64,000 nucleotides of DNA from contig MGGS01000013.1 in the NCBI GenBank assembly GCA_001792535.1, positions 692 through 64,691 on the forward strand. Reading direction: 5' to 3'. The notes beneath the pieces were generated by a model. That model was not told the DNA's origin and made no database searches. It worked only from the letters and a program-made list of their open reading frames with translations. Shown here one piece after another: positions 9,198-27,842 of the stretch. The position numbers were made by a program, and so were the translations under genes. This stretch comes from Candidatus Woesebacteria bacterium RIFCSPHIGHO2_02_FULL_42_20 (lineage in GTDB: Bacteria; Patescibacteriota; Microgenomatia; UBA8517). Position 1 is the first letter of the stretch. Each line of letters starts with the position of its first letter.

Positions 9198-10058
9198 ATG
9201 GGGGTAATTGCAGGGTTACTGGCGATGTCTTTCTGGGGAACGGCTATTTTTTTGGCCGCACTTGCTTCTCGTAAATTAGGAAACGTATTGACTCTTTTTT
9301 GGATGCAGCTTTTCGGGTTTCTGGTTGGTCTTGCTTACTTTCTATTCAACTTAAATTCATTTACTTTTTCTAGAATTTCTCAAAACGCACCGGTCTTACT
9401 TTTAGTGGCAGTGTTTCAGGTAATTGCCTATCTTGGTTTTTACAAAGGACTGGAAAAAGCAGAAGTTTCCTTGGTTGGTCCGGTTGGTGCAGCTTGGGGA
9501 TTGGTTGTCGCAATCTTAGGTGTAATATTTTTGAAGGAGGTCTTAAGTACCCCTCAACTTTTAGCAATAGGACTTATTATTGTTGGTATTATACTCCTTT
9601 CGGTTAATATAAAGGATTTAGTAAGTTCTAAAAAAGTTAATCTTTTGGTTGGTGTTAAAGAGGGGGTTATTGCAATGCTGGGGTGGGGAATATCGCTATA
9701 TCTTTTGGTCTTTCCAAGCAAAGACTTGGGGTGGTTTTTACCGACAATAACTTTCCGTTTTATGGTATTAGTAATTTTGGTAGGATATATTCTTTTTTCA
9801 AAGGGAATTTTCGTTCCAGATAAAAAGAAGTTTCCAATAAAACTTCTTTTAGCAATCGGCTTTTTTGATATTGGTGGATTTTTTGCTTATTCATTTGGAG
9901 TGGCAGGAATACAAGCTTCTATAGTCGCCCCGATCGGTAGTGCTTTTGCACTGGTATCTGTGCTTTTGGCTAAAGTATTTTTAAAAGAGAAGATTGACCA
10001 ATATAAGACAGTTGGAATATTGGCTATTGTGGGCGGGTTAGTTCTCATGTTCGTTTAA
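9198..10058 (+). CDS. EamA/DMT-family transporter
   Basis: 286 aa, ten TM helices in a 5+5 duplicated arrangement typical of the drug/metabolite (EamA) superfamily. Confidence 0.65.
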   Translation: MGVIAGLLAMSFWGTAIFLAALASRKLGNVLTLFWMQLFGFLVGLAYFLFNLNSFTFSRISQNAPVLLLVAVFQVIAYLGFYKGLEKAEVSLVGPVGAAWGLVVAILGVIFLKEVLSTPQLLAIGLIIVGIILLSVNIKDLVSSKKVNLLVGVKEGVIAMLGWGISLYLLVFPSKDLGWFLPTITFRFMVLVILVGYILFSKGIFVPDKKKFPIKLLLAIGFFDIGGFFAYSFGVAGIQASIVAPIGSAFALVSVLLAKVFLKEKIDQYKTVGILAIVGGLVLMFV

Positions 10059-15438: not shown

Positions 15439-16416
15439 TTGAACATGAACGAAGTACTCCTTTTTGTGACTGTTTTGATAGGCTTTGTCGTATTAGGCTA
15501 TTATGTTAATCGCAAACTTTCGGAGTTTGGTGACAAACAAAAACCAGCGGATGAATTACTTGAGTATCTGCGTACTACCAATACCCGTCTCGATGAACAA
15601 GGTAAAAACTTTAATGCCAGGCTAGATAACGCGGCCAAGGTGATTTCCGATGTTCAGAAAAACATTGGTGAAATGAGCGAAATTGGCCGAAGCATGCGCG
15701 ATTTACAAGAGTTTCTTAAAAGCCCCAAGCTACGCGGCAATGTCGGCGAGCATGTATTAAATGAGCTCTTGGGTCAAATGTTGCCTAAGCAATCCTTTCA
15801 TCTGCAGTATTCTTTTAAGTCGGGAGAAAAGGTAGATGCTGCTATCAAAACAACGGCCGGGATTATTCCGATTGATTCGAAGTTTCCGATGGAGAACTTT
15901 CGCAGAATGATGACGGCGGATTCTGATGCGGCAAAAAAAGATGCAGCGAGGCAGTTTGTAAAAGATGTCAAAAAACACATAGACGACATATCCCAAAAAT
16001 ACATTTTGACCGAAGAGGGGACTATCGATTATGCCTTGATGTATGTGCCCTCGGAAGCCGTTTATTATGAAATTGTGAATGACGCCGGTCTTTTTGATTA
16101 TTCGGGAACAAAAAGGGTATTACCGGTTTCGCCCACTACTTTCTATGCCTATCTTAGGGCGATTTTAATGAGTTTCGAAGGCCAAAAAATTGAATCGAAA
16201 GCAAAAGAAGTACTCGCCTCAATCCGAGCTATTCAAAAAGATTATGCAAAAGTGGATGACAATTTATCTGTTTTGCGCAAACACATACGCAACTCGTATA
16301 AGTCGCTGTCGGGTTTACAAGTCTCTTTTTCGGCCTTGGGTAGTAAAATTTCCTCTGCGGGTAAACTGGAAAACAGGGATGGCAAAAGTCTAGGAGATTC
16401 ACAAGATGAAGAGTAG
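15439..16416 (+). CDS. rmuC: DNA recombination protein RmuC
   Basis: N-terminal TM anchor, long coiled coil, conserved C-terminal RmuC region (KLRGNVGEHVLNELL ... YVPSEAVYYEI ... VLPVSPTTFYAYLRAI). Confidence 0.8.
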   Translation: MNMNEVLLFVTVLIGFVVLGYYVNRKLSEFGDKQKPADELLEYLRTTNTRLDEQGKNFNARLDNAAKVISDVQKNIGEMSEIGRSMRDLQEFLKSPKLRGNVGEHVLNELLGQMLPKQSFHLQYSFKSGEKVDAAIKTTAGIIPIDSKFPMENFRRMMTADSDAAKKDAARQFVKDVKKHIDDISQKYILTEEGTIDYALMYVPSEAVYYEIVNDAGLFDYSGTKRVLPVSPTTFYAYLRAILMSFEGQKIESKAKEVLASIRAIQKDYAKVDDNLSVLRKHIRNSYKSLSGLQVSFSALGSKISSAGKLENRDGKSLGDSQDEE

Positions 16417-17074
16417 TAATAAATTTTCTTCAAAACTTATTTTAATACCAACCTTGCTTGTGGTTGCCATTTCTTTTTTGATTTTAACTATTTCTGGATT
16501 TAACTACGACAACCTTTCAGGACTTGTAACTTCTTACGGTGTTTTAGGGGCCGTGTTCTATATGGCCCTTGGTGTTTTGAGTATAGTCTTGGCGCCGACG
16601 TCGACAATTCCGCTTTGGCCGGTAGTACTCGGAGCTTACGGCTTCTGGGTTGCAGTTATTTTGACTTGGGTTAGTGGTATTGTGGGTGCGATTGTTAATT
16701 ATTATATAGCCAAAATATTTGGCCGACCGGTTGTAAAAAAACTAATTGGTGAAAAAGCTTTATCGGAGGTTGATAGGATAGCTGGAATTGTCGGTTGGAA
16801 AGGTTTGGTGGTTGTTCGAACGATCGGTAATGCTTCTTTTGATTATGCTTCATACGCATTTGGATTAGCGAAGTATAATTTTAAAAGTTATCTTGCAGTT
16901 ACGGCAATTACAACTTTTTTTTGGGATGCAGCTGTTTTCTTTTTTTTAGGCAAAGCTATATCTTTAACCCTAATTCCGTCAATTGCAGTGATGATAGGCA
17001 TGTATTTTTTAGCCGTATTTATAGGTGTTAAAGTTTGGCGGTACTACCTCAAAGTTGAAAAGAAGAGTAAATAA
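16406..17074 (+). CDS. DedA/TVP38-family membrane protein
   Basis: Six TM helices with the GxxxV/Y...G pattern of SNARE-associated/DedA proteins; overlaps rmuC end by 11 nt. Confidence 0.6.
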   Translation: MKSSNKFSSKLILIPTLLVVAISFLILTISGFNYDNLSGLVTSYGVLGAVFYMALGVLSIVLAPTSTIPLWPVVLGAYGFWVAVILTWVSGIVGAIVNYYIAKIFGRPVVKKLIGEKALSEVDRIAGIVGWKGLVVVRTIGNASFDYASYAFGLAKYNFKSYLAVTAITTFFWDAAVFFFLGKAISLTLIPSIAVMIGMYFLAVFIGVKVWRYYLKVEKKSK

Positions 17075-17193
17075 AAGAGAGTAAAAGTTGCGGAAGGGAA
17101 AACGGGAACAAACTTACCTTGGTGTATTTTAGAATTCGTGGTCTCCATGATGATTGTTGACAGGTATTTTTTCTACTGATAGTATTACAGTGT

Positions 17194-17442
17194 ATGAACG
17201 GCAAGCAAATAAAAAGAAAGACCAAGGTGGTATCGATCTCGCTTGATCCTGAGGTTTTGGTACTGGTTGATAAACTTAGGAAGGAAGACAGTCAAGACCG
17301 AAGCAGTTTTATAAATTCAATTGTTAAAAAACAGGCTTTATGGCAGGAGTTCAAAAAACTGCAAGAATACGGTCGCGAAAAGGCCAAAAAGTTCAAAATA
17401 ACCTCAGAGGAAGATGTTTACAGGATCATGGGTGATGCATGA
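17194..17442 (+). CDS. RHH/CopG-like antitoxin of a type II TA pair
   Basis: 82 aa; N-terminal beta-strand then two helices (VVSISLDPEVLVLVDKLRKE); 4-nt overlap with the downstream PIN gene. Confidence 0.5.
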   Translation: MNGKQIKRKTKVVSISLDPEVLVLVDKLRKEDSQDRSSFINSIVKKQALWQEFKKLQEYGREKAKKFKITSEEDVYRIMGDA

Positions 17443-17846
17443 AGGTTGTTTGCGATACCAATATCTATATCTCTTTCCTTAAGTTTGGAGGTAAGGCTGA
17501 AATACTTTTGGAGCACGCTTTTAAGGGTGAATTTGATTTGGTTATATCGCCTGAAATTATTAAAGAAACTGCTGATGTCCTTAAAAAGAAGTTCGGCTGG
17601 GATAATGAGAAAGTTAGTAGGTCTATCATGGTTATGACTAATGCGAGTCAGGTTGTAAAACCTACAAAGAAGATAGAAAAAATTAAAACCGATAAATCTG
17701 ACAATAAAATCTTAGAATGTGCAGTTGAAGGGAAGGCCGATTATATTGTTACTGGTGATAAAAAACATTTACTTCCCCTTAAAAAATTCAAAGGAATTCC
17801 AATTTATTCCCCGCAGGAATTTTTGAAAAAGGTTCTATATAATTAG
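17439..17846 (+). CDS. PIN-domain toxin (VapC-like)
   Basis: MKVVCDTNIYISFL ... ISPEIIKE ... YIVTGDKKH: the conserved Asp/Glu/Asp acidic residues of PIN nucleases. Confidence 0.7.
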   Translation: MKVVCDTNIYISFLKFGGKAEILLEHAFKGEFDLVISPEIIKETADVLKKKFGWDNEKVSRSIMVMTNASQVVKPTKKIEKIKTDKSDNKILECAVEGKADYIVTGDKKHLLPLKKFKGIPIYSPQEFLKKVLYN

Positions 17847-17865
17847 TCTGGATTTATGAAATACA

Positions 17866-17928
17866 GAACTCTTGGGAAAACAGGATTGAAGGTATCGGAA
17901 GTTGGAATGAGCACTTAGCAATTGACAA
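17866..17928 (+). pseudogene. aldo/keto reductase N-terminal stub (20 codons then stop)
   Basis: MKYRTLGKTGLKVSEVGMST* is the canonical AKR start (MKYR.LGKTGLKVSE.GLG) truncated by TAG; about 80% nt-identical to a second stub at 18563. Confidence 0.5.
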
Positions 17929-17967
17929 AAATGTTCATGATGTATATTATAAAAACATACAAATGAA

Positions 17968-18273
17968 ATGGCAAGGAGGAGCGGGGATTATTTTGAGTTT
18001 GATTGGGACAAAGGAAATAAAGACAAAAATTGGGTTAGACATCGAGTTTCTAACCAACAGGCGGAGCAAATTTTTGTAGATAAGTTTGCTTTTGTTACGC
18101 CCGACGTAAAACATTCGACTATCGAGCCCAGATATCAGATTTTAGGACAGACTTTTGCAGGTAGATATTTAGCCGTTTATTACACATTAAGAGGAATTAA
18201 AATCAGAATAATCTCAGCTAGGCCGATGAACAAAAAAGAAAGAACACAACATGAAAAGCAAAAAGAAATTTAA
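17968..18273 (+). CDS. BrnT-family ribonuclease toxin (DUF497)
   Basis: FEFDWDKGNKDKNWVRHRVSNQQAEQIF ... RIISARPMNKKE matches the BrnT signature (F.WD..K...N..KH.V...EAE..F ... ISAR.A...E). Confidence 0.7.
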   Translation: MARRSGDYFEFDWDKGNKDKNWVRHRVSNQQAEQIFVDKFAFVTPDVKHSTIEPRYQILGQTFAGRYLAVYYTLRGIKIRIISARPMNKKERTQHEKQKEI

Positions 18274-18547
18274 GACCGTACCGAAATTTAAGAATGAGGA
18301 TGAAGAAAGGGACTTTTGGGATAAAGCAGACTCTTCAGAGTATTTTGATTGGAGTAAGGGTCATCGTGCCAAATTTCCCAACCTGAAACTTTCGACGGAG
18401 ACAATTTCCTTACGTGTTCCAAAGGGGTTATTGGATGATATTAAAATTCAAGCAAACAAGCGTGATGTTCCCTATCAGTCTTTAATTAAAATTTATCTGG
18501 ATGAGGCGCTTCGTATTGACCAAAGAGAAAAAATCTTGAGGAGATAG
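18251..18547 (+). CDS. BrnA-family antitoxin
   Basis: Overlaps BrnT by 23 nt; ..EERDFWDKADSSEYFDWSKG ... ISLRVPKGLLDDIKIQANKRDVPYQSLIKIYLDEAL (RHH-like C-terminus) as in BrnA. Confidence 0.65.
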   Translation: MKSKKKFKTVPKFKNEDEERDFWDKADSSEYFDWSKGHRAKFPNLKLSTETISLRVPKGLLDDIKIQANKRDVPYQSLIKIYLDEALRIDQREKILRR

Positions 18548-18562
18548 CTTGTTTTGGTTCAG

Positions 18563-18625
18563 ATGAAATACAAAACTCTTGGTAAAACTGGATTGAAAGT
18601 TTTGGGGGTTGGAATAGGGGTGTGA
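18563..18625 (+). pseudogene. second aldo/keto reductase N-terminal stub
   Basis: MKYKTLGKTGLKVLGVGIGV* (20 codons, TGA); paralogous to 17866..17928. Confidence 0.5.
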
Positions 18626-20007
18626 AAGTTGACATGAACAAATTAAAATCTATAAACCCTTCAAACAAAGAACTCCTCGGAGAAATTGAGATTTCCTCGG
18701 AAGCAGAAATAAAGAGGAAAGTTGCAAACGCACAAAAAGCAAAAGAAGCATGGAAGTCTTTGGGTTTGGAAAAAAGAGTGAAAATTCTTAGAGAAATTTC
18801 GCAAAACCTTGTCAGTCGAAAAGAAGAAATTGCCGTTTTGGTTTCCAAGGAAATGGGAATGCCGATCAACGATAGTAGGTACGATGTTGATGATTCTGTT
18901 CGTTACTTTAACTGGTATTTAGATAATGCAGAGGAGTACTTATCGCCGGAGGTTGTATACGATAGTGAATCTGTAAAACATACAGTCTATTACGAGCCAT
19001 TGGGTGTTGATGCCTCAATTGCCCCCTGGAATTTTCCATTATCAAACTTTGTTTGGCTGGTCGGACAAAATTTGATTGCAGGCAATTGTGTTGTCTTTAA
19101 GCATTCTGAAGAAGTTCCTTTGTTTGGAAAATTAATAGAAGAAATAATTAATAGTTGTGGTTTACCAGAAGGTGTTTTTTCAGAAGTTTACGGAGATGGG
19201 AAAGTTGGGGACTTTCTTGCTCGTCAGAACATTAACTTAATTTGCTTTACAGGAAGCACTAGGGCTGGGAAGTATCTTTACAAGGTCGGAGCCGAAAAGT
19301 TTATAAAGGTTCTTCTGGAACTGGGCGGTTCTGCACCAGGAGTTATTTTTGAAGATACGAGTATAGACAAAGTTCTAAACTCAATTTACTCCTCAAGGTT
19401 TGGGAACTGTGGACAGATGTGTGACGCGTTAAAGAGGCTAATAATACATGAAAGTAAGATGAACGAGGTTTTAGAAAAACTTAAAGCAAAACTTGAATCG
19501 CTAAAAATTGGGAATGCTTTAGACGAAAGTACTGAACTAGGACCTCTGGTTGCCGAAAGACAGATTAAGCTGTTAGAAGAGCAAGTTGGAGACGCATTAA
19601 GCAAGGGTGCGATGTTAGTTACTGGAGGCACAAGGCATAAGGGTTTGGAAGGGTTTTTCTATCTTCCAACAATTCTTATCAACATAAAGAGAAATATGAG
19701 AGTTTGGAAAGAAGAAATTTTCGGACCAGTTCTTCCGGTTGTTTCTTTCAAGAAAGAAGAGAAGGCAGTTGAGTTAGCAAATGATACATCTTACGGGCTG
19801 GGCGGATATTTGTACACAGAGGATAAAGAAAAAGCAAAAAGGGTAGCGTCAAAACTTCAGACAGGAATGGTTTCGATTAACGGTCTGAGTTATTTGCAAC
19901 CTTGTAGCCCCTTCGGAGGTTATAAGGACTCTGGAATCGGCAGAGAGCATGGACGATTCGGGTTTCATGATGTTACGCAAGTAAAGGTCGTGGCGGAAGA
20001 AAAATGA
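18622..20007 (+). CDS. NAD(P)-dependent aldehyde dehydrogenase
   Basis: ALDH-family signatures SIAPWNFP, FTGSTRAGK, LELGGSAP and catalytic Cys context FGNCGQMC; 461 aa. Start may be the internal ATG at 18634. Confidence 0.85.
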   Translation: MKVDMNKLKSINPSNKELLGEIEISSEAEIKRKVANAQKAKEAWKSLGLEKRVKILREISQNLVSRKEEIAVLVSKEMGMPINDSRYDVDDSVRYFNWYLDNAEEYLSPEVVYDSESVKHTVYYEPLGVDASIAPWNFPLSNFVWLVGQNLIAGNCVVFKHSEEVPLFGKLIEEIINSCGLPEGVFSEVYGDGKVGDFLARQNINLICFTGSTRAGKYLYKVGAEKFIKVLLELGGSAPGVIFEDTSIDKVLNSIYSSRFGNCGQMCDALKRLIIHESKMNEVLEKLKAKLESLKIGNALDESTELGPLVAERQIKLLEEQVGDALSKGAMLVTGGTRHKGLEGFFYLPTILINIKRNMRVWKEEIFGPVLPVVSFKKEEKAVELANDTSYGLGGYLYTEDKEKAKRVASKLQTGMVSINGLSYLQPCSPFGGYKDSGIGREHGRFGFHDVTQVKVVAEEK

Positions 20008-20240
20008 ATAAGATTAAAATTTTGGTTGAGGGATATGCGAGGGTGAATTCTGACGGAACCTGGGACTCGACGTCGTCGACTACGTGTTTGTAACGCATTA
20101 TCACCCTGGCCACTGCCCCGAACACGCGTCGCTTCTGGTTAATACCGAAAAAGGGAAAGTAGTTGTCGCGGCCGCAGAAAAAGGCTTTTGGAGATGGCAG
20201 ATTTTATAATCCCCGGCCACGGAAAGATATTTAAAGTAAG
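20005..20240 (+). pseudogene. decayed MBL-fold metallo-hydrolase gene (frameshifted, internally deleted)
   Basis: Three frames carry fragments MNKIKILVEGYARVNSDG... / ...LDVVDYVFVTHYHPGHC... (degenerate HxHxDH) / ...IIPGHGKIFKV (typical MBL C-terminus) within 236 bp. Confidence 0.45.
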
Positions 20241-20655
20241 ATGACGGAGTTAGCAGAGATAACAGAAGAATCTGTTGATCACTTTGTTACACAGTTGCAA
20301 GCAGACAGGGTCAGGGCACTTAGCCGTGTTGAACCTGGGTCTACTGCGGCCTCAGTGCTAGGAGATCTTTATCCTCTGCTTCATGGGCCACTCTATCCTA
20401 GAAGAAAAAGTGCAGAGATAGCAACAGCTTAATCTTTTTGCAGTTTTAGCAGAGCCGACTGCCGAGGTAGAACTCCCATATTTGGCTAGAGCAGTTCAGG
20501 CTTTCCAAAGACCGGGATTGGCTGTTAACTCTACGGCTCTTCTAGTAAATTGGCCGGCAAAAGCGTCAAGAACCCTGGAAGGCATTACTCATAACTCTTC
20601 GTTGAGAGATGAGATTGACAAAACAGGCATATTTAGTGAGATCGAAAATATGTAG
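20241..20655 (+). pseudogene. unidentified decayed ORF(s), locally GC-rich
   Basis: A 63-codon ORF (20241..20432) is followed in another frame by a 77-codon start-less open frame to 20655; both Ala/Arg-rich, unlike neighbouring genes. Likely a frameshifted remnant. Confidence 0.3.
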
Positions 20656-20660
20656 GGGAT

Positions 20661-20924
20661 ATGGAAAATCTGGATACTAAATTAAAGAGGTGGTTGGTAA
20701 AGTTTTTGGCGCGTCAAAGAAGCTACGTTGACGTGGACACGAGAATACTGGGGATTGAGGCAAATACAGAGTTGGCTATGAGACAGAAAATTGGGAGGAG
20801 GATGGCTGAAGTTTCAGGACCCGGTCTCTCGCTTGGTTTGACTACTGAGAATAATCCACAGCTATTAAGATGTTATGGTAAACACGTATATTTGGCAAAC
20901 ATAGACGTTAGGTCAAAACAGTGA
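20661..20924 (+). CDS. hypothetical protein (87 aa)
   Basis: ORF with ATG start directly after the decayed region; no recognisable motif. Confidence 0.3.
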   Translation: MENLDTKLKRWLVKFLARQRSYVDVDTRILGIEANTELAMRQKIGRRMAEVSGPGLSLGLTTENNPQLLRCYGKHVYLANIDVRSKQ

Positions 20925-20997
20925 TTAAAGAGTTGGAGTTTAAACTAACGAGTTCCCATTCCGACTCTTTTAAACACAGGAGACAACGACTGGCCGT

Positions 20998-21486
20998 TTA
21001 AGGGTGGGAAGCGATTTTGAGTGCATATTTAGCATAAAACTTCACGTGTTTTTTGAGATTGTATCTCGGGTCGTCTAACTCTTCTTTTGTAAACCATTTG
21101 TGTCTTACTACATGTTTGTCCCTTGATTTTTTAACAGTGCTAGCGGTTGTCAGAAAGTATCTGAAGCCAATATGAAAATGATTTTTGCCGGCCTCGTGGA
21201 TATCTGAAAATGTTGGTGTCACAATGTTATGACCTTTCAAATCACTAAAGATATTTTCCTCAGGAATACTCTTTCTAGGATCGATTAGCCCAATTTCATT
21301 TTTAGTTATTCCGGTTTCCTCTTCTATTTCACGAAAGATACTCCCTTCGATGTTTTCGTCGGGGTCGATATGACCTCCTGGTGGAAGCCAGAGATAATAT
21401 CTATCGTTATAAATCAGCAGAACTTTATTTTTTTTGACTATAAAACAACTTACTGTGTAATCGAGGTATTTGCTGGTATGCGCCAT
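20998..21486 (-). CDS. NUDIX hydrolase
   Basis: NUDIX box GGHIDPDENIEGSIFREIEEETGI (Gx5Ex7REUxEExGU). Confidence 0.8.
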   Translation of the reverse strand: MAHTSKYLDYTVSCFIVKKNKVLLIYNDRYYLWLPPGGHIDPDENIEGSIFREIEEETGITKNEIGLIDPRKSIPEENIFSDLKGHNIVTPTFSDIHEAGKNHFHIGFRYFLTTASTVKKSRDKHVVRHKWFTKEELDDPRYNLKKHVKFYAKYALKIASHP

Positions 21487-21925
21487 GGGGATATTGTAGC
21501 TTAATTTTATTTATACTTTCAACACAAAGCCATGCAGCCATTGCACCAAATCCTGTCTTGTTAATTTGAAAAGGCTTTATTTGTTTTATGTTTTTAATAA
21601 AGATCAGAAGACAATACTTTTTGTCTTTAAATAATTCGAAATAATATTTGATTTTTTCTTTTTCAATTCCGTCTTCTTTGCCAAACTTTTGTAAAATGTT
21701 TTTGGCTTCCGAAGGATTTAGATTTTCGAGCTGCAATACCTTTGCCACAGCAGCCTCTACTGTTACTGACTCACCTGAATTTTTGAAATAAACAACGTCG
21801 CCCGGTTTAATTTTATTCCACGGTGCTCGTTTGGTTTTGTACCAGCGGGATTCAATAGATTTTCTGCCATCAAGAATCTCTGGGATTAGCCCCCAAGATT
21901 TCTTCATTATGGCGACGTGATCCAT
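21425..21925 (-). CDS. ASCH/PUA-like domain protein
   Basis: N-terminal ESRWYKTKRAPWNKIKPGDVVYFK pattern typical of ASCH domains; 3' end overlaps the NUDIX gene start by 62 nt in another frame. Confidence 0.45.
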   Translation of the reverse strand: MDHVAIMKKSWGLIPEILDGRKSIESRWYKTKRAPWNKIKPGDVVYFKNSGESVTVEAAVAKVLQLENLNPSEAKNILQKFGKEDGIEKEKIKYYFELFKDKKYCLLIFIKNIKQIKPFQINKTGFGAMAAWLCVESINKIKLQYPHGAYQQIPRLHSKLFYSQKK

Positions 21926-24837: not shown

Positions 24838-24920
24838 AAACGAAGCATGAATTATAACTAAGATTGGAAGGCTGCGTCAATATAGCAAAGAAATTCTCCA
24901 GGCGTGGTAAAATTAGATTC

Positions 24921-27842
24921 ATGGCGGAAGAAAAGAAATTGAACAAGGAACAAAAAGAGGCGGTTGGGTTTAGGGACGGGCCGCTTTTGATTATTGCCGG
25001 GGCTGGGACGGGTAAAACCACTGTTGTAACCGAGCGGATAAAGCGGTTGATTAGCAAAGGACTGGCAAAACCTCAAGAAATTTTAGCCTTGACTTTTACC
25101 GAGAAAGCCGCGCTCGAGATGGAGACCAGGGTCGACGAGATAATGCCTTACGGCTACACACAGATGTGGATTATGACTTTCCACTCCTTCTGCGATCGGG
25201 TTTTGCGTGCTGATGCGCTTCACGTTGGCTTGGATCCAAGATATAAATTGATGACTGAAGCGGATGCAATAGCTTTAATCCGCAGAAATCTCTTTAAATT
25301 GGAGTTGGAATATTTTAGGCCTTTGGGTAATCCGACCAAATTCGTAAGCGGTATACTGCAACATTTTTCGCGTCTTCAAGACGAAGATGTAGACCCAAGT
25401 GACTATCTCACTTGGGTAAATTCCAATTTTCAAATTCCAAATTCCAAATTAAGTCAAGAACAAAGAGTTGAGGGAAATAAATACAGGGAGTTGGCAAATA
25501 CCTACAGAAAGTATGAGGAGTTAAAAATCAAAGAGGGTGTCATGGATTTTGGGGACTTAATTACCAAAACCCTAAAACTTTTTCGCGATCGGCCGAATGT
25601 TTTAAAACAGTATAAGTCCAAGTTTAAGTACGTCTTGGTAGATGAGTATCAGGATACCAACATTTCCCAAAACGAGTTAGTCAAACTTTTGGTCGGTAAA
25701 GAGGGCAATATTACTGTTGTAGCGGATGACGACCAAGCGATTTACCGCTGGAGGGGCGCTTCGATCTCTAACGTTATTCAGTTCAGAAAAAGCTTTCCTG
25801 AAACACACGTTGTAACGCTGACGAAAAATTATCGTTCTACCCAAAAAATTCTGGATAAAGCCTACCAACTTATACAGAATAATAACCCCGACAGATTGGA
25901 GGTTGTTGAGAAAATAGGCAAAAAACTTGTATCACAAGTTGACAAGAATGGCGAGGATATTAACTTTATTCATAGAGACCGTATTGAAAACGAAGCAGAC
26001 AGCGTGGCGAAAGAGGTAATTCAACTGATTAAACTGCAGAAATATGATTATAAGGATATCGCCGTGCTCGTGCGAGCCAATAATCACGCAGATGCCTTTG
26101 CCAGAGCCTTTGCCTGGCAGGGTATCCCTTATCAATTTTTAGGCCCCGGAAGACTTTTTAGACAATCGGAAGTTGTTGACCTGGTTTCTTATTTGCGAGT
26201 TTTGTATAACTTTGAAGATTCAGTGTCCTTTTATAGAGTTTTATCGATTGATTACTTTGATATTCTTGCGCGTGATTTGGCAAAAATTGGAAATTATGCC
26301 AAGCGCTATAACTTAAGCTTGTTTGAAACCGTTGAAAAAATTGATGAAGTGTCGGTCGGCGAGGAAACCAAGGAAAAACTAAAGAAGATTATGTTACTGA
26401 TAAACAAGCACCTAAAACTTGTACGGCGTGAAACCACGGGCCAAATTCTTTATTACTTTTTGCAGGATAGCGGTTTACTACAAAATCTTATTAACCCCCA
26501 GTCACCTGAGGCTGAAAAACAGGCTAAGAATATATCAAAATTTTTTGACAAACTAAAAAACTACGAAGCGGAGCACGAAGACGCGACTATTCCGGCCGTC
26601 GTTGATTGGTTGGATTTATCCACCGAGTTGGGCGAGTCTCCTTTGGCTGCAGACACTGACAGGCCGGAAGTTGACGCGGTAAATATTCTGACTGTTCACG
26701 GAAGTAAGGGCCTAGAATTTCCCGTTGTATTCTTGGTTAACCTCGTCGGCCAGCGCTTTCCGTCGACAGAAAGGCAGGAGCAGATTCCAATTCCGGAGGA
26801 GTTGATCAAAGAAATTTTACCGCAAGGTGATTTTCATCTGCAGGAGGAGCGAAGGCTTTTTTATGTCGGAATGACTCGGGCGCGCGAGCGCCTGTATTTT
26901 TCGGCGGCAGATTACTATGGGGAAGGGAAGAGAGAAAAGAAGCTTAGCCCGTTTATTTTTGAAGCGCTTGGGGATGAAGCAATAGCCAGCGAGCCCTTCG
27001 GCGATGCTCAGGGTAAACAGCTAAGTTTTTTGGATTACGAGCCCACCAATCACCAATCACTAATTACTAATCACCGGCAAAATTTCCATATAGATTATCT
27101 CTCTTACTCCCAAATCGAGACTTTCAAGGTCTGTCCTTTGCACTATAAACTTGGGTATATTTTACGGATTCCTACTCCCCTGTCTGCATCACAAAGTTTC
27201 GGGACCTCAATACACACGACTTTGAAATACTTCTACGAGCAAGTTAAAAATGGTAGTAAATCTGCTGAAAAGCTTCTTTTAGATATTTATAAGGACTCTT
27301 GGGTTAAAGAAGGCTATACTAGTCGTGAGCACGAGAAGAAGTTTTTCGAAAAAGGTAAGGATTATTTAAAAGGCTATTTTAATGTGGAATTTGATTCGAA
27401 GGTGTTACCGGCACTCCTTGAACAGCGATTTACGATCCCGTTGGCAGAAGAAAGTGAACGACCTTTAAAAATCGGCGGTGTAATAGATCGAGTTGATGAA
27501 CATGAAGACGGGTCAGTTGAAATAATTGACTACAAGACAGGAGCAAATATACCTTCCCAAAAAGAGGTTGATAGTAATTTGCAAATGACTTTTTACGCAC
27601 TCGCTGCAGTGATGTTACAAGATAATCCGTTTAATAAGGACCCCAAGGATATCGCCTTGTCTTTATATTTTCTTGACAACCAGCAAAAAATTTCGACGAG
27701 GAAAACTAAAGAACAGCTGCAAAGCGCAATAAAAGAAATCTTTGAAATTAGAAAAGAGATAGAGCAATCAAACTTTACCTGCTCCGGCCACATGTTCTGC
27801 CGTAACTGTGAGTATAAACTGATGTGCAATATTGACAACTAA
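24921..27842 (+). CDS. UvrD/PcrA-type SF1 helicase fused to a C-terminal Cas4/AddB-like PD-(D/E)XK Fe-S nuclease
   Basis: Walker A AGAGTGKTT; helicase motifs DEYQDTN, TKNYRST, VHGSKGLEF, GMTRAR; C-terminal nuclease with one upstream Cys (CPLHY), the EIIDYKTG motif and terminal Cys triad CSGHMFCRNCEYKLMC. Start chosen at ATG 24921 (MAEEKK). Confidence 0.8.
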   Translation: MAEEKKLNKEQKEAVGFRDGPLLIIAGAGTGKTTVVTERIKRLISKGLAKPQEILALTFTEKAALEMETRVDEIMPYGYTQMWIMTFHSFCDRVLRADALHVGLDPRYKLMTEADAIALIRRNLFKLELEYFRPLGNPTKFVSGILQHFSRLQDEDVDPSDYLTWVNSNFQIPNSKLSQEQRVEGNKYRELANTYRKYEELKIKEGVMDFGDLITKTLKLFRDRPNVLKQYKSKFKYVLVDEYQDTNISQNELVKLLVGKEGNITVVADDDQAIYRWRGASISNVIQFRKSFPETHVVTLTKNYRSTQKILDKAYQLIQNNNPDRLEVVEKIGKKLVSQVDKNGEDINFIHRDRIENEADSVAKEVIQLIKLQKYDYKDIAVLVRANNHADAFARAFAWQGIPYQFLGPGRLFRQSEVVDLVSYLRVLYNFEDSVSFYRVLSIDYFDILARDLAKIGNYAKRYNLSLFETVEKIDEVSVGEETKEKLKKIMLLINKHLKLVRRETTGQILYYFLQDSGLLQNLINPQSPEAEKQAKNISKFFDKLKNYEAEHEDATIPAVVDWLDLSTELGESPLAADTDRPEVDAVNILTVHGSKGLEFPVVFLVNLVGQRFPSTERQEQIPIPEELIKEILPQGDFHLQEERRLFYVGMTRARERLYFSAADYYGEGKREKKLSPFIFEALGDEAIASEPFGDAQGKQLSFLDYEPTNHQSLITNHRQNFHIDYLSYSQIETFKVCPLHYKLGYILRIPTPLSASQSFGTSIHTTLKYFYEQVKNGSKSAEKLLLDIYKDSWVKEGYTSREHEKKFFEKGKDYLKGYFNVEFDSKVLPALLEQRFTIPLAEESERPLKIGGVIDRVDEHEDGSVEIIDYKTGANIPSQKEVDSNLQMTFYALAAVMLQDNPFNKDPKDIALSLYFLDNQQKISTRKTKEQLQSAIKEIFEIRKEIEQSNFTCSGHMFCRNCEYKLMCNIDN

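Follow-up and report, generated by a model that had tools for sequence, protein, structure and literature searches.

Two short open reading frames in a groundwater Woesebacteria genome, both started by ATG and 20 codons long, are fragments of aldo/keto reductase (AKR) genes and not reductases. They flank a BrnT/BrnA toxin–antitoxin (TA) cassette, with an RHH-like/PIN_3 cassette upstream and an aldehyde dehydrogenase (ALDH) gene downstream. This part of the genome is a hypervariable islet bordered by two conserved DNA-repair genes, rmuC and one for a UvrD-like helicase. The stubs are best read as scars, left by gene loss and the swapping of DNA, and not as a dedicated site of insertion. The features of the locus are listed here in positions of the window (the whole stretch of DNA that was analysed, 64 kb).

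15439..16416, + strand: rmuC, conserved left border of the islet (Pfam RmuC, 1.3e-56)
16406..17074, + strand: gene for a VTT/DedA-like membrane protein (Pfam VTT_dom, 2.4e-14)
17157..17185, + strand: promoter of the RHH-PIN cassette, TTGACA-17-TAGTAT (10/12 consensus match), left edge of that cassette
17194..17442, + strand: RHH-like antitoxin candidate, 82 aa (weak RHH_1 match, E=0.036, below the Pfam cut-off)
17439..17846, + strand: predicted PIN_3 toxin (Pfam PIN_3, 3e-20)
17847..17927, + strand: stub 1, 9 nt of AKR upstream sequence and AKR codons 1-24 (ORF 17856-17918; TAG at the Trp-21 position)
17922..17950, + strand: brnTA promoter, TTGACA-17-TATTAT (11/12 consensus match), the -35 hexamer overlapping codons 23-24 of stub 1
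17968..18273, + strand: predicted BrnT toxin (Pfam BrnT_toxin, PF04365, 2.6e-23)
18251..18547, + strand: predicted BrnA antitoxin (Pfam BrnA/CopG_antitoxin, PF12441, 3.6e-32)
18548..18637, + strand: stub 2, 15 nt of upstream sequence and AKR codons 1-24 (ORF 18563-18625)
18634..20007, + strand: ALDH, a frequent occupant of the islet (Pfam Aldedh, 2.1e-139)
20001..20241, + strand: MBL-fold gene relic, reduced by internal deletions (three tblastn fragments)
24864..27842, + strand: UvrD/PDDEXK helicase gene, conserved right border of the islet (by its Pfam families)

An earlier sequence-only reading of this DNA had reported two 20-codon AKR-like frames. Both exist, with the peptides it quoted; the start it gave for stub 2 (18563) is correct, and that for stub 1 (17866) lies ten bases off the true one (17856). 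It was also right that they match the AKR N-terminus: they carry the N-terminal strand motif M-x-Y-R-x-L-G-x-T-G-x-x-V-S-x-x-G-x-G-T-W (Aldo/keto reductase, PF00248), and they are true 5' ends, aligned through codon 23/24 to intact AKR genes of related Woesebacteria that encode 332 aa and 349 aa. Their stop codons (TAG in stub 1, TGA in stub 2) stand where the intact genes carry TGG. Neither has the full (alpha/beta)8 barrel and its catalytic residues, which take about 280-350 aa: tblastn with two intact AKRs recovered residues 1-24 only, twice, and no residue past position 24 in any frame of the window. A nhmmer profile built from five stub/AKR 5' ends recognizes stub 1 with an E-value of 1.4e-18 and stub 2 with 8.8e-16. 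Over residues 1-24, stub 1 matches the intact AKR of a related locus, L043, at 87.5%, and stub 2 matches intact AKR at 67% (tblastn); against the AKR consensus, stub 1 has two residue changes and stub 2 has seven. In the first 53 nt (codons 1-18), stub 1 differs from the L043 gene at eight nucleotides, every one of them a synonymous change.

The nucleotide identity of the two stubs, put at about 80% by that reading, is 85% (45/53) over the first 53 nt, and about 75% (51/69 to 54/72) over the entire AKR-like stretch. When the stubs were aligned with their flanks, as that reading had proposed, the similarity extended only to about 10 nt 5' of each ATG and to a TTGACA hexamer right after codon 22. 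A 38-nt degenerate stub pattern has two matches in 64 kb, the two stubs, and none in 100 shuffles; taken as a direct repeat around brnTA, the two stubs reach z=20 relative to shuffles. The repeats contain identical blocks of 8-10 nt, and both stubs have the TTG ACA junction and several derived third-position states in common. In its original frame stub 2, as read from the sequence, ends at a TGA (18635-18637) that overlaps the ALDH start codon at 18634 as ATGA; its present TGA at the Trp-21 position overlaps a GTG at 18622 (GTGA), 12 nt before the ALDH ATG. The second TTGACA, at 18629-18634, is the junction between stub 2 and ALDH.

The stub arrangement is not an assembly artefact, since 15 contigs, from samples and assemblers independent of one another, carry it at 99.96-100% identity. 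Over the 11 kb compared among these contigs, at 99.96-100% identity, the population carries no signal on selection at the stubs. Nearby, the contigs vary at one place only, where rmuC has a deletion of 27 nt. A possible third, degenerate stub 5' of the RHH gene (17085-17162, GGGAAAAC...TTGACA) was rejected: the nhmmer stub profile returned nothing there and the local alignment was at chance level. So was the idea that CAATTG (AKR codons 22-23) fixes the break point as a restriction site, as the window has 30 copies of the hexamer against 25.5 expected and so shows no avoidance. Structured RNA in the stub region was sought and neither an Rfam match nor a significant fold was found; scans of viral contigs with RmuC and with the stub pattern, for a phage or plasmid origin, were empty, and none of the N-terminal extensions of 20 ALDH homologues is AKR-like.

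A TA cassette does precede each stub, and ALDH follows the second, as first described (Pfam PIN_3, BrnT, BrnA and Aldedh are all confirmed). The label RHH-PIN is secure for its PIN_3 half; the antitoxin half rests on the weak RHH_1 match, yet the 82-aa gene overlaps the PIN gene by ATGA, and an 82-aa homologue precedes PIN_3 in the related islet L046. Homology with the L046 cassette starts at the window promoter (the block TAGTATTACAGTGTATGAACGGCAAGCA is identical in both) and ends at the PIN stop codon, and no stub follows there. The brnT and brnA genes overlap by 23 nt. The same pair is found in L050, L051, L053 and L054, with BrnA homologues of 78-85% amino acid identity in these four loci and in L056. 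The predicted sigma-70-like brnTA promoter and an operator-like palindrome beside it (ATGTATATTATAAAAACATAC) are conserved 5' of brnT in L050, L051 and L053; because its -35 box is among the conserved elements, the TTGACA after stub 1 belongs to the brnTA cassette. Each cassette has its own promoter and is self-contained, starting with its -35 box and ending where its second gene stops. The AKR stub is absent beside the BrnTA homologues of L051, L053, L054 and L056. Since the same cassettes occur elsewhere without it, the stub is not part of them.

Ten islets were compared for variation in borders and content. The backbone GT-MetRS-TrpR-RmuC is conserved in L016, L042, L046-L050, L052 and L053, and what follows it differs: the islet of L048 is empty, with uvrD directly after rmuC, that of L049 holds one 189-aa ORF, L047 has ALDH, L046 has ALDH and RHH-PIN, L016 an AbiEii TA module and ALDH-CutA-MBL, L052 ALDH-MBL-MazE/PIN, and L050 BrnTA-stub-ALDH-MBL. 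In L016, L047 and L049 uvrD comes after one to six variable genes, and in L046, L047 and L052 ALDH stands directly after rmuC. The ALDH genes of these three islets and of L016 have no stub-type leader. No homologue of the VTT/DedA-like gene was found by tblastn in 26 ALDH loci (L016-L041), nor do the genes listed for the islets of L046-L050, L052 and L053 include one with VTT_dom. An intact AKR gene lies 5 nt after the rmuC stop in L042 (Pfam Aldo_ket_red, 2.7e-54), and another precedes cutA in L043. The intact AKR-ALDH pair that the sequence-only reading expected in relatives was seen neither in the 26 ALDH loci from species genomes nor in eight islets, and neither RHH-PIN-stub-ALDH nor BrnTA-intact AKR-ALDH turned up in any lineage, which counts against the model given below. 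In this clade ATGA overlaps are usual (RHH/PIN, ALDH/MBL, AKR/CutA); that between AKR and cutA in L043 is the same start/stop overlap by which an AKR relic would have been left on ALDH in the model given below. An insertion at a NUDIX/ASCH overlap in L013 proved to be a scaffold artefact (Ns and a duplicated edge).

Identities of border and islet genes are discordant: between the window and L052 they are 56% for RmuC and 68% for ALDH, and between the window and L050 68% for RmuC and 54% for ALDH, as expected if islet contents have been exchanged between lineages. The RmuC tree is star-like. The ALDHs of the window and of L050 belong to different groups, with 45-54% identity between groups. AKR homology stops at codon 23/24 at three junctions, namely stub 1 with brnTA, stub 2 with ALDH, and the L050 stub with its ALDH. 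The L050 stub is 67-72% identical to the window stubs at the nucleotide level, similar to the surrounding coding genes; its frame of 23 codons ends as ATGA on the ALDH start, and stub 2 has 24 codons if the stop at Trp-21 is ignored. In L050 and L052 an intact gene of 193-197 aa follows ALDH, and the three fragments of the MBL relic correspond to its N-terminal, central and C-terminal parts; such a collapse, to 240 nt, shows that deletional decay is active at the locus.

Copies of gene ends beside cassettes are not limited to AKR: in other islets, copies of 70-86 nt derive from the ends of rmuC or uvrD. For example, the 3' end of rmuC is duplicated around brnTA in L053 (75 nt, 83%, z=28.8), and the 5' end of uvrD around an orphan Phd antitoxin gene in L056 (70 nt, 89%, z=34.5); L049 has a marginal relic of the uvrD 3' end. 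In all three the neighbouring gene is intact on one side, with a stub on the other. Direct repeats derived from the target gene are present at both ends of the insert at brnTA in the window, in L053 and in L056, and the flanking repeat is absent from 11 of the 15 cassette instances tested. A putative rmuC 3' relic after the AbiEii cassette of L016 was left uncounted (short peptide similarity only, TQNLGSG...KELE*, not significant at the nucleotide level).

We consider it probable that the AKR relics were left by deletion, and that illegitimate or homology-anchored recombination between diverged lineages then took place at a common TTGACA. Reconstructed from the end products, the order of events would be as follows. 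Deletion of the AKR body would have spared a leader of 24 codons, its stop overlapping the ALDH start (ATGA). This relic would have existed in two diverged versions, following RHH-PIN in one case and brnTA in the other, which would then have been joined in tandem, either by an illegitimate or homology-anchored crossover or by a microhomology tandem duplication followed by replacement; the join would lie at TTGACA, found both as the brnTA -35 box (17922) and at the stub/ALDH junction (18629), 707 bp apart. The Trp-21 codons of both stubs would have mutated to stops later. Stub 1 today likely has no role except to provide the first bases of the brnTA -35 box, and stub 2 is no more than a remnant leader ORF 5' of ALDH. 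Some observations speak against this model. A single inherited deletion needs a swap of ALDH, because the window and L050 ALDHs belong to different groups, and independent deletions need near-identical end points. The identity of the window and L050 stubs exceeds what is expected of an old neutral relic, and a simultaneous origin would not predict that decay looks less advanced in stub 1 than in stub 2.

Exchange of this kind has known counterparts. In Neisseria, minimal mobile elements are variable cassettes that one fixed pair of conserved genes encloses and that transformation, with homologous recombination in the flanking DNA, exchanges between strains. The window islet resembles them in its fixed flanks (the core pair rmuC and uvrD), which enclose different whole-gene cassettes in each lineage, in having no mobility genes, and in the discordant phylogenies of islet and flank genes; the discordant RmuC and ALDH identities suggest, indirectly, that the islet may be exchanged by DNA uptake and homologous recombination in its flanks. 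It differs in that the host is an uncultured CPR bacterium and the lineages are only about 70% identical in the flanks; moreover, the definition of minimal mobile elements does not include the partial duplicates of flanking gene ends that window-type islets carry. Homology-facilitated illegitimate recombination is a feature of natural transformation in Acinetobacter and Streptococcus pneumoniae, and one homologous anchor with one microhomology joint would give the junctions of the window; candidate joints are TTGACA, or AATTG between the AKR CAATTG and the cassette's AATTGACA. We know of no demonstration of this process in CPR bacteria, and here, unlike in those species, it would be deduced from what it left behind. 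In Photorhabdus, a published study describes chromosomal TA islets in small 'spots' between core genes, TA operons standing alone or in small groups with no mobile-element genes, and their spread by homologous recombination at the flanks (PMC13617665). In the window, as a difference from those islets, erosion affects the neighbouring metabolic genes (AKR, MBL) and not the TA genes, and the scars are gene-end duplicates.

It is possible, and compatible with an origin as relics, that stub 2 and the L050 stub have been kept as a functional leader ORF, by translational coupling: ribosomes would load at the former AKR initiation region, stop at or beside the ALDH start, and re-initiate there. An ATG and an open frame ending as ATGA on the ALDH start are kept in both lineages, the premature TGA of stub 2 overlaps a GTG, the stubs are as similar between lineages as the surrounding coding genes, and there is no terminator-like site between brnA and ALDH. 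However, with ATGA overlaps so usual in the clade the layout may be simply inherited, four other ALDHs do without such a leader, and stub 2 has its seven residue changes and a nonsense codon. Differences between stubs 1 and 2 by codon position are 3/5/10, a bias that is not significant with three sequences only.

We regard it as unlikely that the gene ends are themselves the means of insertion, i.e. that TA pieces or circles carry about 70-90 nt of a neighbouring gene end and enter the same gene end of another lineage by a RecA-type single crossover (Campbell-like). Such an event, which we likewise hold to be rather improbable, would regenerate the gene and leave a stub on the far side, and repeated rounds would build stub-cassette-stub arrays. 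Three or four independent islets have cassettes flanked by gene-end direct repeats of comparable length, the neighbouring gene is intact on one side in L053, L056 and L049 as predicted, BrnTA and stub stand together directly before two different ALDH types, and a fixed patch end would account for the limit at codon 23/24. But most of the cassette instances have no flanking repeat, the AKR patch is missing from four BrnTA cassettes and from the RHH-PIN of L046, stub 2 of the window and the L050 stub are not followed by an intact AKR, and no circle or excision variant occurs among the 15 near-identical contigs. Homology-facilitated illegitimate recombination would give the same end structure, and the data cannot tell it from this model. 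If the model held, the AKR patch, which ends at a fixed point and stands before brnTA and before two different ALDH types, would be one portable handle, and it could double as a ready-made translation start for any gene that comes to lie behind it. That small TA and other cassettes in Woesebacteria, perhaps in CPR bacteria generally, move in this way without a recombinase of their own is doubtful. The sequence-only reading had offered, as one option, a recombination site carried by each TA unit; the stub-free cassettes and the lack of a fold speak against it, and what survives is that gene-end copies recur beside islet cassettes and may have served as recombination homology.

Some integrative elements bring a replacement gene end with them, for example phage 21 and e14 in icd, and SXT in the 5' end of prfC. 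By analogy, the AKR 5' end could have been the attachment site of site-specific elements now without an integrase, each carrying a replacement AKR start and accreting in tandem (CIME-like), which we consider very unlikely. Diverged gene-end direct repeats around an inserted module, with the gene intact on one side in L053, L056 and L049, do resemble the classical attL/attR picture, the repeats contain identical 8-10 nt blocks, and a fixed attP arm would explain the shared limit at codon 23/24. Against this, no integrase, transposase or recombinase was found among the precomputed Pfam hits for genes within 10 kb on either side, nor an integrase in any relative's islet examined; the relics come from four different gene ends and not from one target, the repeats are 15-25% diverged, the modules of 600-700 bp (inserts of 0.3-0.7 kb across the islets) have no other element genes, and the target gene is not regenerated in the window.

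The staggered target-site duplication that the sequence-only reading had offered as one of its options, and an integron-like array with attC-type sites, share with the locus a general picture only: repeats between small single-function cassettes, TA modules included, in one orientation. Both are highly improbable, because the locus has neither an integrase nor a hairpin nor a short identical repeat: the copies measure about 70 nt (53-72 nt) at 75-85% identity, they are fragments of a coding gene, no terminal or other inverted repeats bracket the cassettes, no transposase or IntI was found within 10 kb on either side, the cassettes have their own promoters, and fold z-scores of the inter-cassette DNA on both strands (-0.4 to -1.0) reveal no attC-like hairpin. 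A target-site duplication is contradicted, too, by stub 1 being at least as close to the L043 AKR as to stub 2 (85% and 85% over 53 nt, 82% and 75% over 72 nt). A full-length AKR broken by a sequencing error, or an assembly chimera, is refuted: no AKR body can be read in any frame of the window, and the locus is identical in 15 contigs from different samples and assemblers.

For annotation, the 20-codon 'AKR starts' are a warning: they are relics, not genes. On the ordinary reading, the locus is a clean, dated example of streamlined CPR genomes losing genes and trading small modules: the rmuC-uvrD interval is a defined hotspot in which TA cassettes have minimal boundaries and gene ends are left as scars. 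If the 70-90-nt gene-end copies were true integration handles, which would explain both the fixed end of the stubs and their open frame onto the next gene, they would amount to a way for cassettes to move without a recombinase, in organisms for which dependence on DNA uptake is assumed.

Two 20-codon ORFs that resemble the start of an aldo/keto reductase (AKR) gene lie on either side of brnTA, stub 1 behind an RHH-PIN toxin–antitoxin (TA) cassette and stub 2 in front of an aldehyde dehydrogenase (ALDH) gene. The sequence-only reading had described this arrangement accurately, as judged from ORFs, domains and nucleotide identity. Its position for stub 2 (18563) stands, but stub 1 starts at 17856 and not at 17866.

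Genes (ORF and domain search) and stub ORFs around brnTA in the window.
15439–16416, +, rmuC
16406–17074, +, VTT/DedA-like membrane gene
17194–17442, +, 82-aa RHH-like gene, overlapping the PIN_3 gene
17439–17846, +, PIN_3 gene
17856–17918, +, stub 1, 20-codon ORF (MKYRTLGKTGLKVSEVGMST, then a stop) between the PIN_3 gene and brnT
17968–18273, +, brnT
18251–18547, +, brnA
18563–18625, +, stub 2, 20-codon ORF (MKYKTLGKTGLKVLGVGIGV, then a stop) between brnA and ALDH
18634 (ATG)–20007, +, ALDH

The stubs are identical at 45 of 53 nt and then ∼75% identical across 69–72 nt; a degenerate 38-mer has only two sites in the window (both stubs) and none in 100 shuffles. The stub locus recurs at 99.96–100% identity in 15 contigs from other Rifle aquifer samples and assemblers (e.g. 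GenBank MGFW01000013.1, Candidatus Woesebacteria bacterium RIFCSPHIGHO2_02_FULL_42_20), so the two-stub layout is real and not an assembly artefact.

Some other features of the neighborhood were observed (numbers beginning with L are our handles for fetched contigs or loci of relatives or population members). The window RmuC has a long branch and an atypical C-terminal tail, which the VTT gene overlaps, and 27 nt of rmuC (window 16267–16293, as compared with L044) are deleted in frame in one population variant, Ga0209751_10043827. In L010, an otherwise identical population contig, a 332-aa HTH_38 (IS30-like) gene at 623–1621 splits the EamA transporter gene (window 9198–10058); no other mobile-element gene was seen in the vicinity. 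The NUDIX (20998–21486) and ASCH-like (21425–21925) ORFs, both on the minus strand, overlap by 62 nt; their apparent fusion in contig L013 is a scaffold artefact, an N-gap with a duplicated edge.

A codon-degenerate pattern scan of metagenome contigs yielded two intact AKR genes sharing the 5' end of the stubs. L042, whose contig shows synteny with the window, has an AKR of 332 aa (Aldo_ket_red, 2.7e-54) that starts 5 nt past the rmuC stop; the AKR of L043 is 349 aa long, and a cutA-like gene begins within its stop (ATGA overlap). Both stubs can be aligned to these genes as far as codon 23/24, and their stop codons fall at Trp-21 of the intact genes (TGG to TAG in stub 1, TGG to TGA in stub 2). 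Between stub 1 and L043 there are 8 differences in the first 53 nt, every one synonymous, and stub 2 shows seven residue changes relative to the AKR consensus. A tblastn search of the whole 64 kb with the intact proteins found no AKR sequence past residue 24; a read-through AKR gene masked by a sequencing error is therefore ruled out. The stubs are very probably AKR relics within a variable islet.

This islet is the stretch between rmuC and the UvrD-like helicase gene. Using RmuC, BrnA and ALDH homologues as anchors, we retrieved the corresponding region of relatives, in which there is a conserved backbone (GT-MetRS-TrpR-RmuC ... UvrD/PDDEXK helicase-NUDIX) but no conservation of the rmuC–uvrD interval. 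The islet is empty in L048 and holds one 189-aa ORF in L049, ALDH in L047, ALDH with a membrane ORF and an RHH-PIN_3 cassette in L046, ALDH with a metallo-beta-lactamase-fold (MBL) gene and MazE/PIN in L052, an AbiEii-type TA with ALDH, CutA and MBL in L016, the intact AKR in L042, and BrnTA, an AKR stub, ALDH and MBL in L050. RmuC identities are star-like (64–79% among the compared lineages), and ALDH forms two groups that do not track RmuC: the window shares 56% (RmuC) and 68% (ALDH) identity with L052, versus 68% and 54% with L050, as would be produced by islet contents exchanged between lineages. The window, too, shows deletional decay, in its collapsed MBL (Lactamase_B) gene: an intact gene of 193–197 aa follows ALDH in L050, L052 and L016, and at window 20001–20241 three fragments within 240 nt match its N-terminal, middle and C-terminal parts, the ATG still overlapping the ALDH stop (ATGA). 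The adjoining ∼750 nt (20241–20990), with ORFs of 63 aa and 87 aa, have no Pfam or Rfam match, at a GC content (0.42–0.46) slightly above the surroundings (about 0.36–0.40); in L053, an ORF located upstream of rmuC gives one weak tblastn match to window 20820–20897 (E = 2e-4).

The stubs are not part of the cassettes. For RHH-PIN, homology between L046 and the window starts at the TTGACA of the -35 box and goes no further than the stop codon of PIN, and the alignment shows no stub after the L046 cassette. BrnTA homologues (BrnA 78–85% identical) are found without an AKR stub in four other contexts: after a hydrolase gene and abutting MBL (L051), after groEL (L054) and after rmuC (L053 and L056). 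Given cassettes without a stub in these five contigs, the suggestion that each TA unit carries a recombination site is not borne out in that form. Since the brnTA promoter (TTGACA-17-TATTAT plus a palindrome) is kept in L050, L051 and L053, the TTGACA after stub 1 is brnTA's own -35 box; its junction with AKR codons 22–23 (CAATTG) is a 3–5-nt microhomology.

The promoters have features of their own. A conserved AT-rich palindrome-like block, (A)TGTATATTATAAAAACATAC, spans the brnTA -10 box (window 17935–17962, L050 7683–7712, L053 2010–2033); it is a likely BrnA operator, and it bears a superficial likeness to a dif core. In the predicted RHH-PIN promoter, 8 nt separate the end of the -10 box from the ATG (window 17157–17196; L046 7880–7918), and the mRNA would therefore be nearly leaderless; a block in this region, TAGTATTACAGTGTATGAACGGCAAGCA, is identical in the window and L046 despite RmuC being only 71% identical. 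In L042, a promoter-like TTGACA-17-TAGAAT (107–79, minus strand) lies 3 nt past the intact AKR stop, which suggests that another self-promoted cassette comes next; the contig ends ∼80 nt on.

In L050 (order BrnTA-stub-ALDH) the single stub has 23 codons with Trp intact, and its stop overlaps the ALDH start (CAA TTA TGA). If the Trp-21 stop is ignored, the stub 2 frame ends TTG ACA TGA on the ALDH ATG (18634), and stub 1 ends TTG ACA, followed by the remainder of the brnTA promoter; the two TTGACA (17922 and 18629) are spaced by exactly one repeat period, 707 bp. Together with TTG ACA, the stubs share several derived third-position states (ACT, GGA, GTT), which fits a common truncated ancestor. 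The layout could have arisen by an unequal microhomology-mediated crossover between two diverged molecules, both with a stub–ALDH junction, one having RHH-PIN before the stub and the other brnTA; a second crossover would be anchored in flanking homology. Alternatively, brnTA and stub could have been duplicated in tandem through microhomology, the first of the two brnTA copies then being replaced via rmuC and stub homology. A small circle with brnTA and an AKR patch, if inserted in a Campbell-like manner, would yield the same end product and may have been the route instead; any specific recombination route is proposed only tentatively.

Among 15 cassette instances, three are strongly positive for flanking direct repeats and one is marginal; all four are in the rmuC–uvrD islet, and the repeats are ends of neighboring genes (53–86 nt), the gene-end relics being oddly uniform in length (70–86 nt). 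In L053, the final ∼80 nt of rmuC are present on both sides of brnTA (75 nt, 83%, z = 28.8), at 1882–1956 (completing rmuC) and 2623–2697 (the relic). In L056, an orphan antitoxin gene (Phd/YefM; minus strand), whose toxin is apparently deleted, has a copy of the uvrD 5' end (70 nt, 89%, z = 34.5) upstream of it; the order after brnA (343–816) is a few rmuC-relic codons (LGQKITS) fused to a 23-codon uvrD 5' stub, the Phd/YefM gene and then intact uvrD. The marginal case, a possible uvrD 3' relic in L049 (9598–9672 and 10375–10449; 75 nt, 68%, z = 4.9), is placed after an inserted 2-phosphosulfolactate-phosphatase-like gene. The L053 contig ends, after brnTA, in an apparent RHH-PIN promoter (TTGACT...TAGTATTTAAAGTGTG); the two cassettes of the window would thus stand there in reverse order.

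The window and L050 stubs are 67–72% identical at the nucleotide level, equal to the surrounding coding genes, which is not expected of an old neutral relic. AKR homology ends at codon 23/24 in all three junctions, although the ALDHs behind stub 2 and the L050 stub belong to different groups. This fixed end, the stub identity and the uniform relic lengths keep two less ordinary readings alive. In one, the gene-end pieces may be homology handles by which cassettes integrate. In the other, stub 2 may be kept as a leader ORF through which translation is coupled into ALDH, a reading that the coding-level identity favors; however, ATGA overlaps are the local norm (RHH/PIN, the ALDH/MBL relic, AKR/CutA in L043), and ALDH occurs without such a leader in four other lineages. 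A transposon target duplication and an integron-type array are rejected, because neither an integrase nor a transposase is present within 10 kb of the locus and the inter-cassette DNA folds no better than shuffles on either strand and has no Rfam match; the staggered target-site duplication of the sequence-only reading is not supported as stated.

Phage 21/e14 at icd and SXT at prfC insert into gene ends, bring a replacement end and are flanked by attL/attR; the gene-end duplicates of the islet are like these, except that the islet has no integrase. In their junctions, the duplicates of the islet resemble products of homology-facilitated illegitimate recombination. The rmuC–uvrD islet behaves in the manner of Neisseria's 'minimal mobile element' sites, and it is similar to the small TA 'spots' that lie between core genes of Photorhabdus, for which spread via homologous recombination at the core genes that flank them has been proposed (PMC13617665). 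That gene-end scars recur is a side observation of modest interest, and the two stubs are best classed as pseudogene relics, located at a recombination hotspot in a CPR genome.
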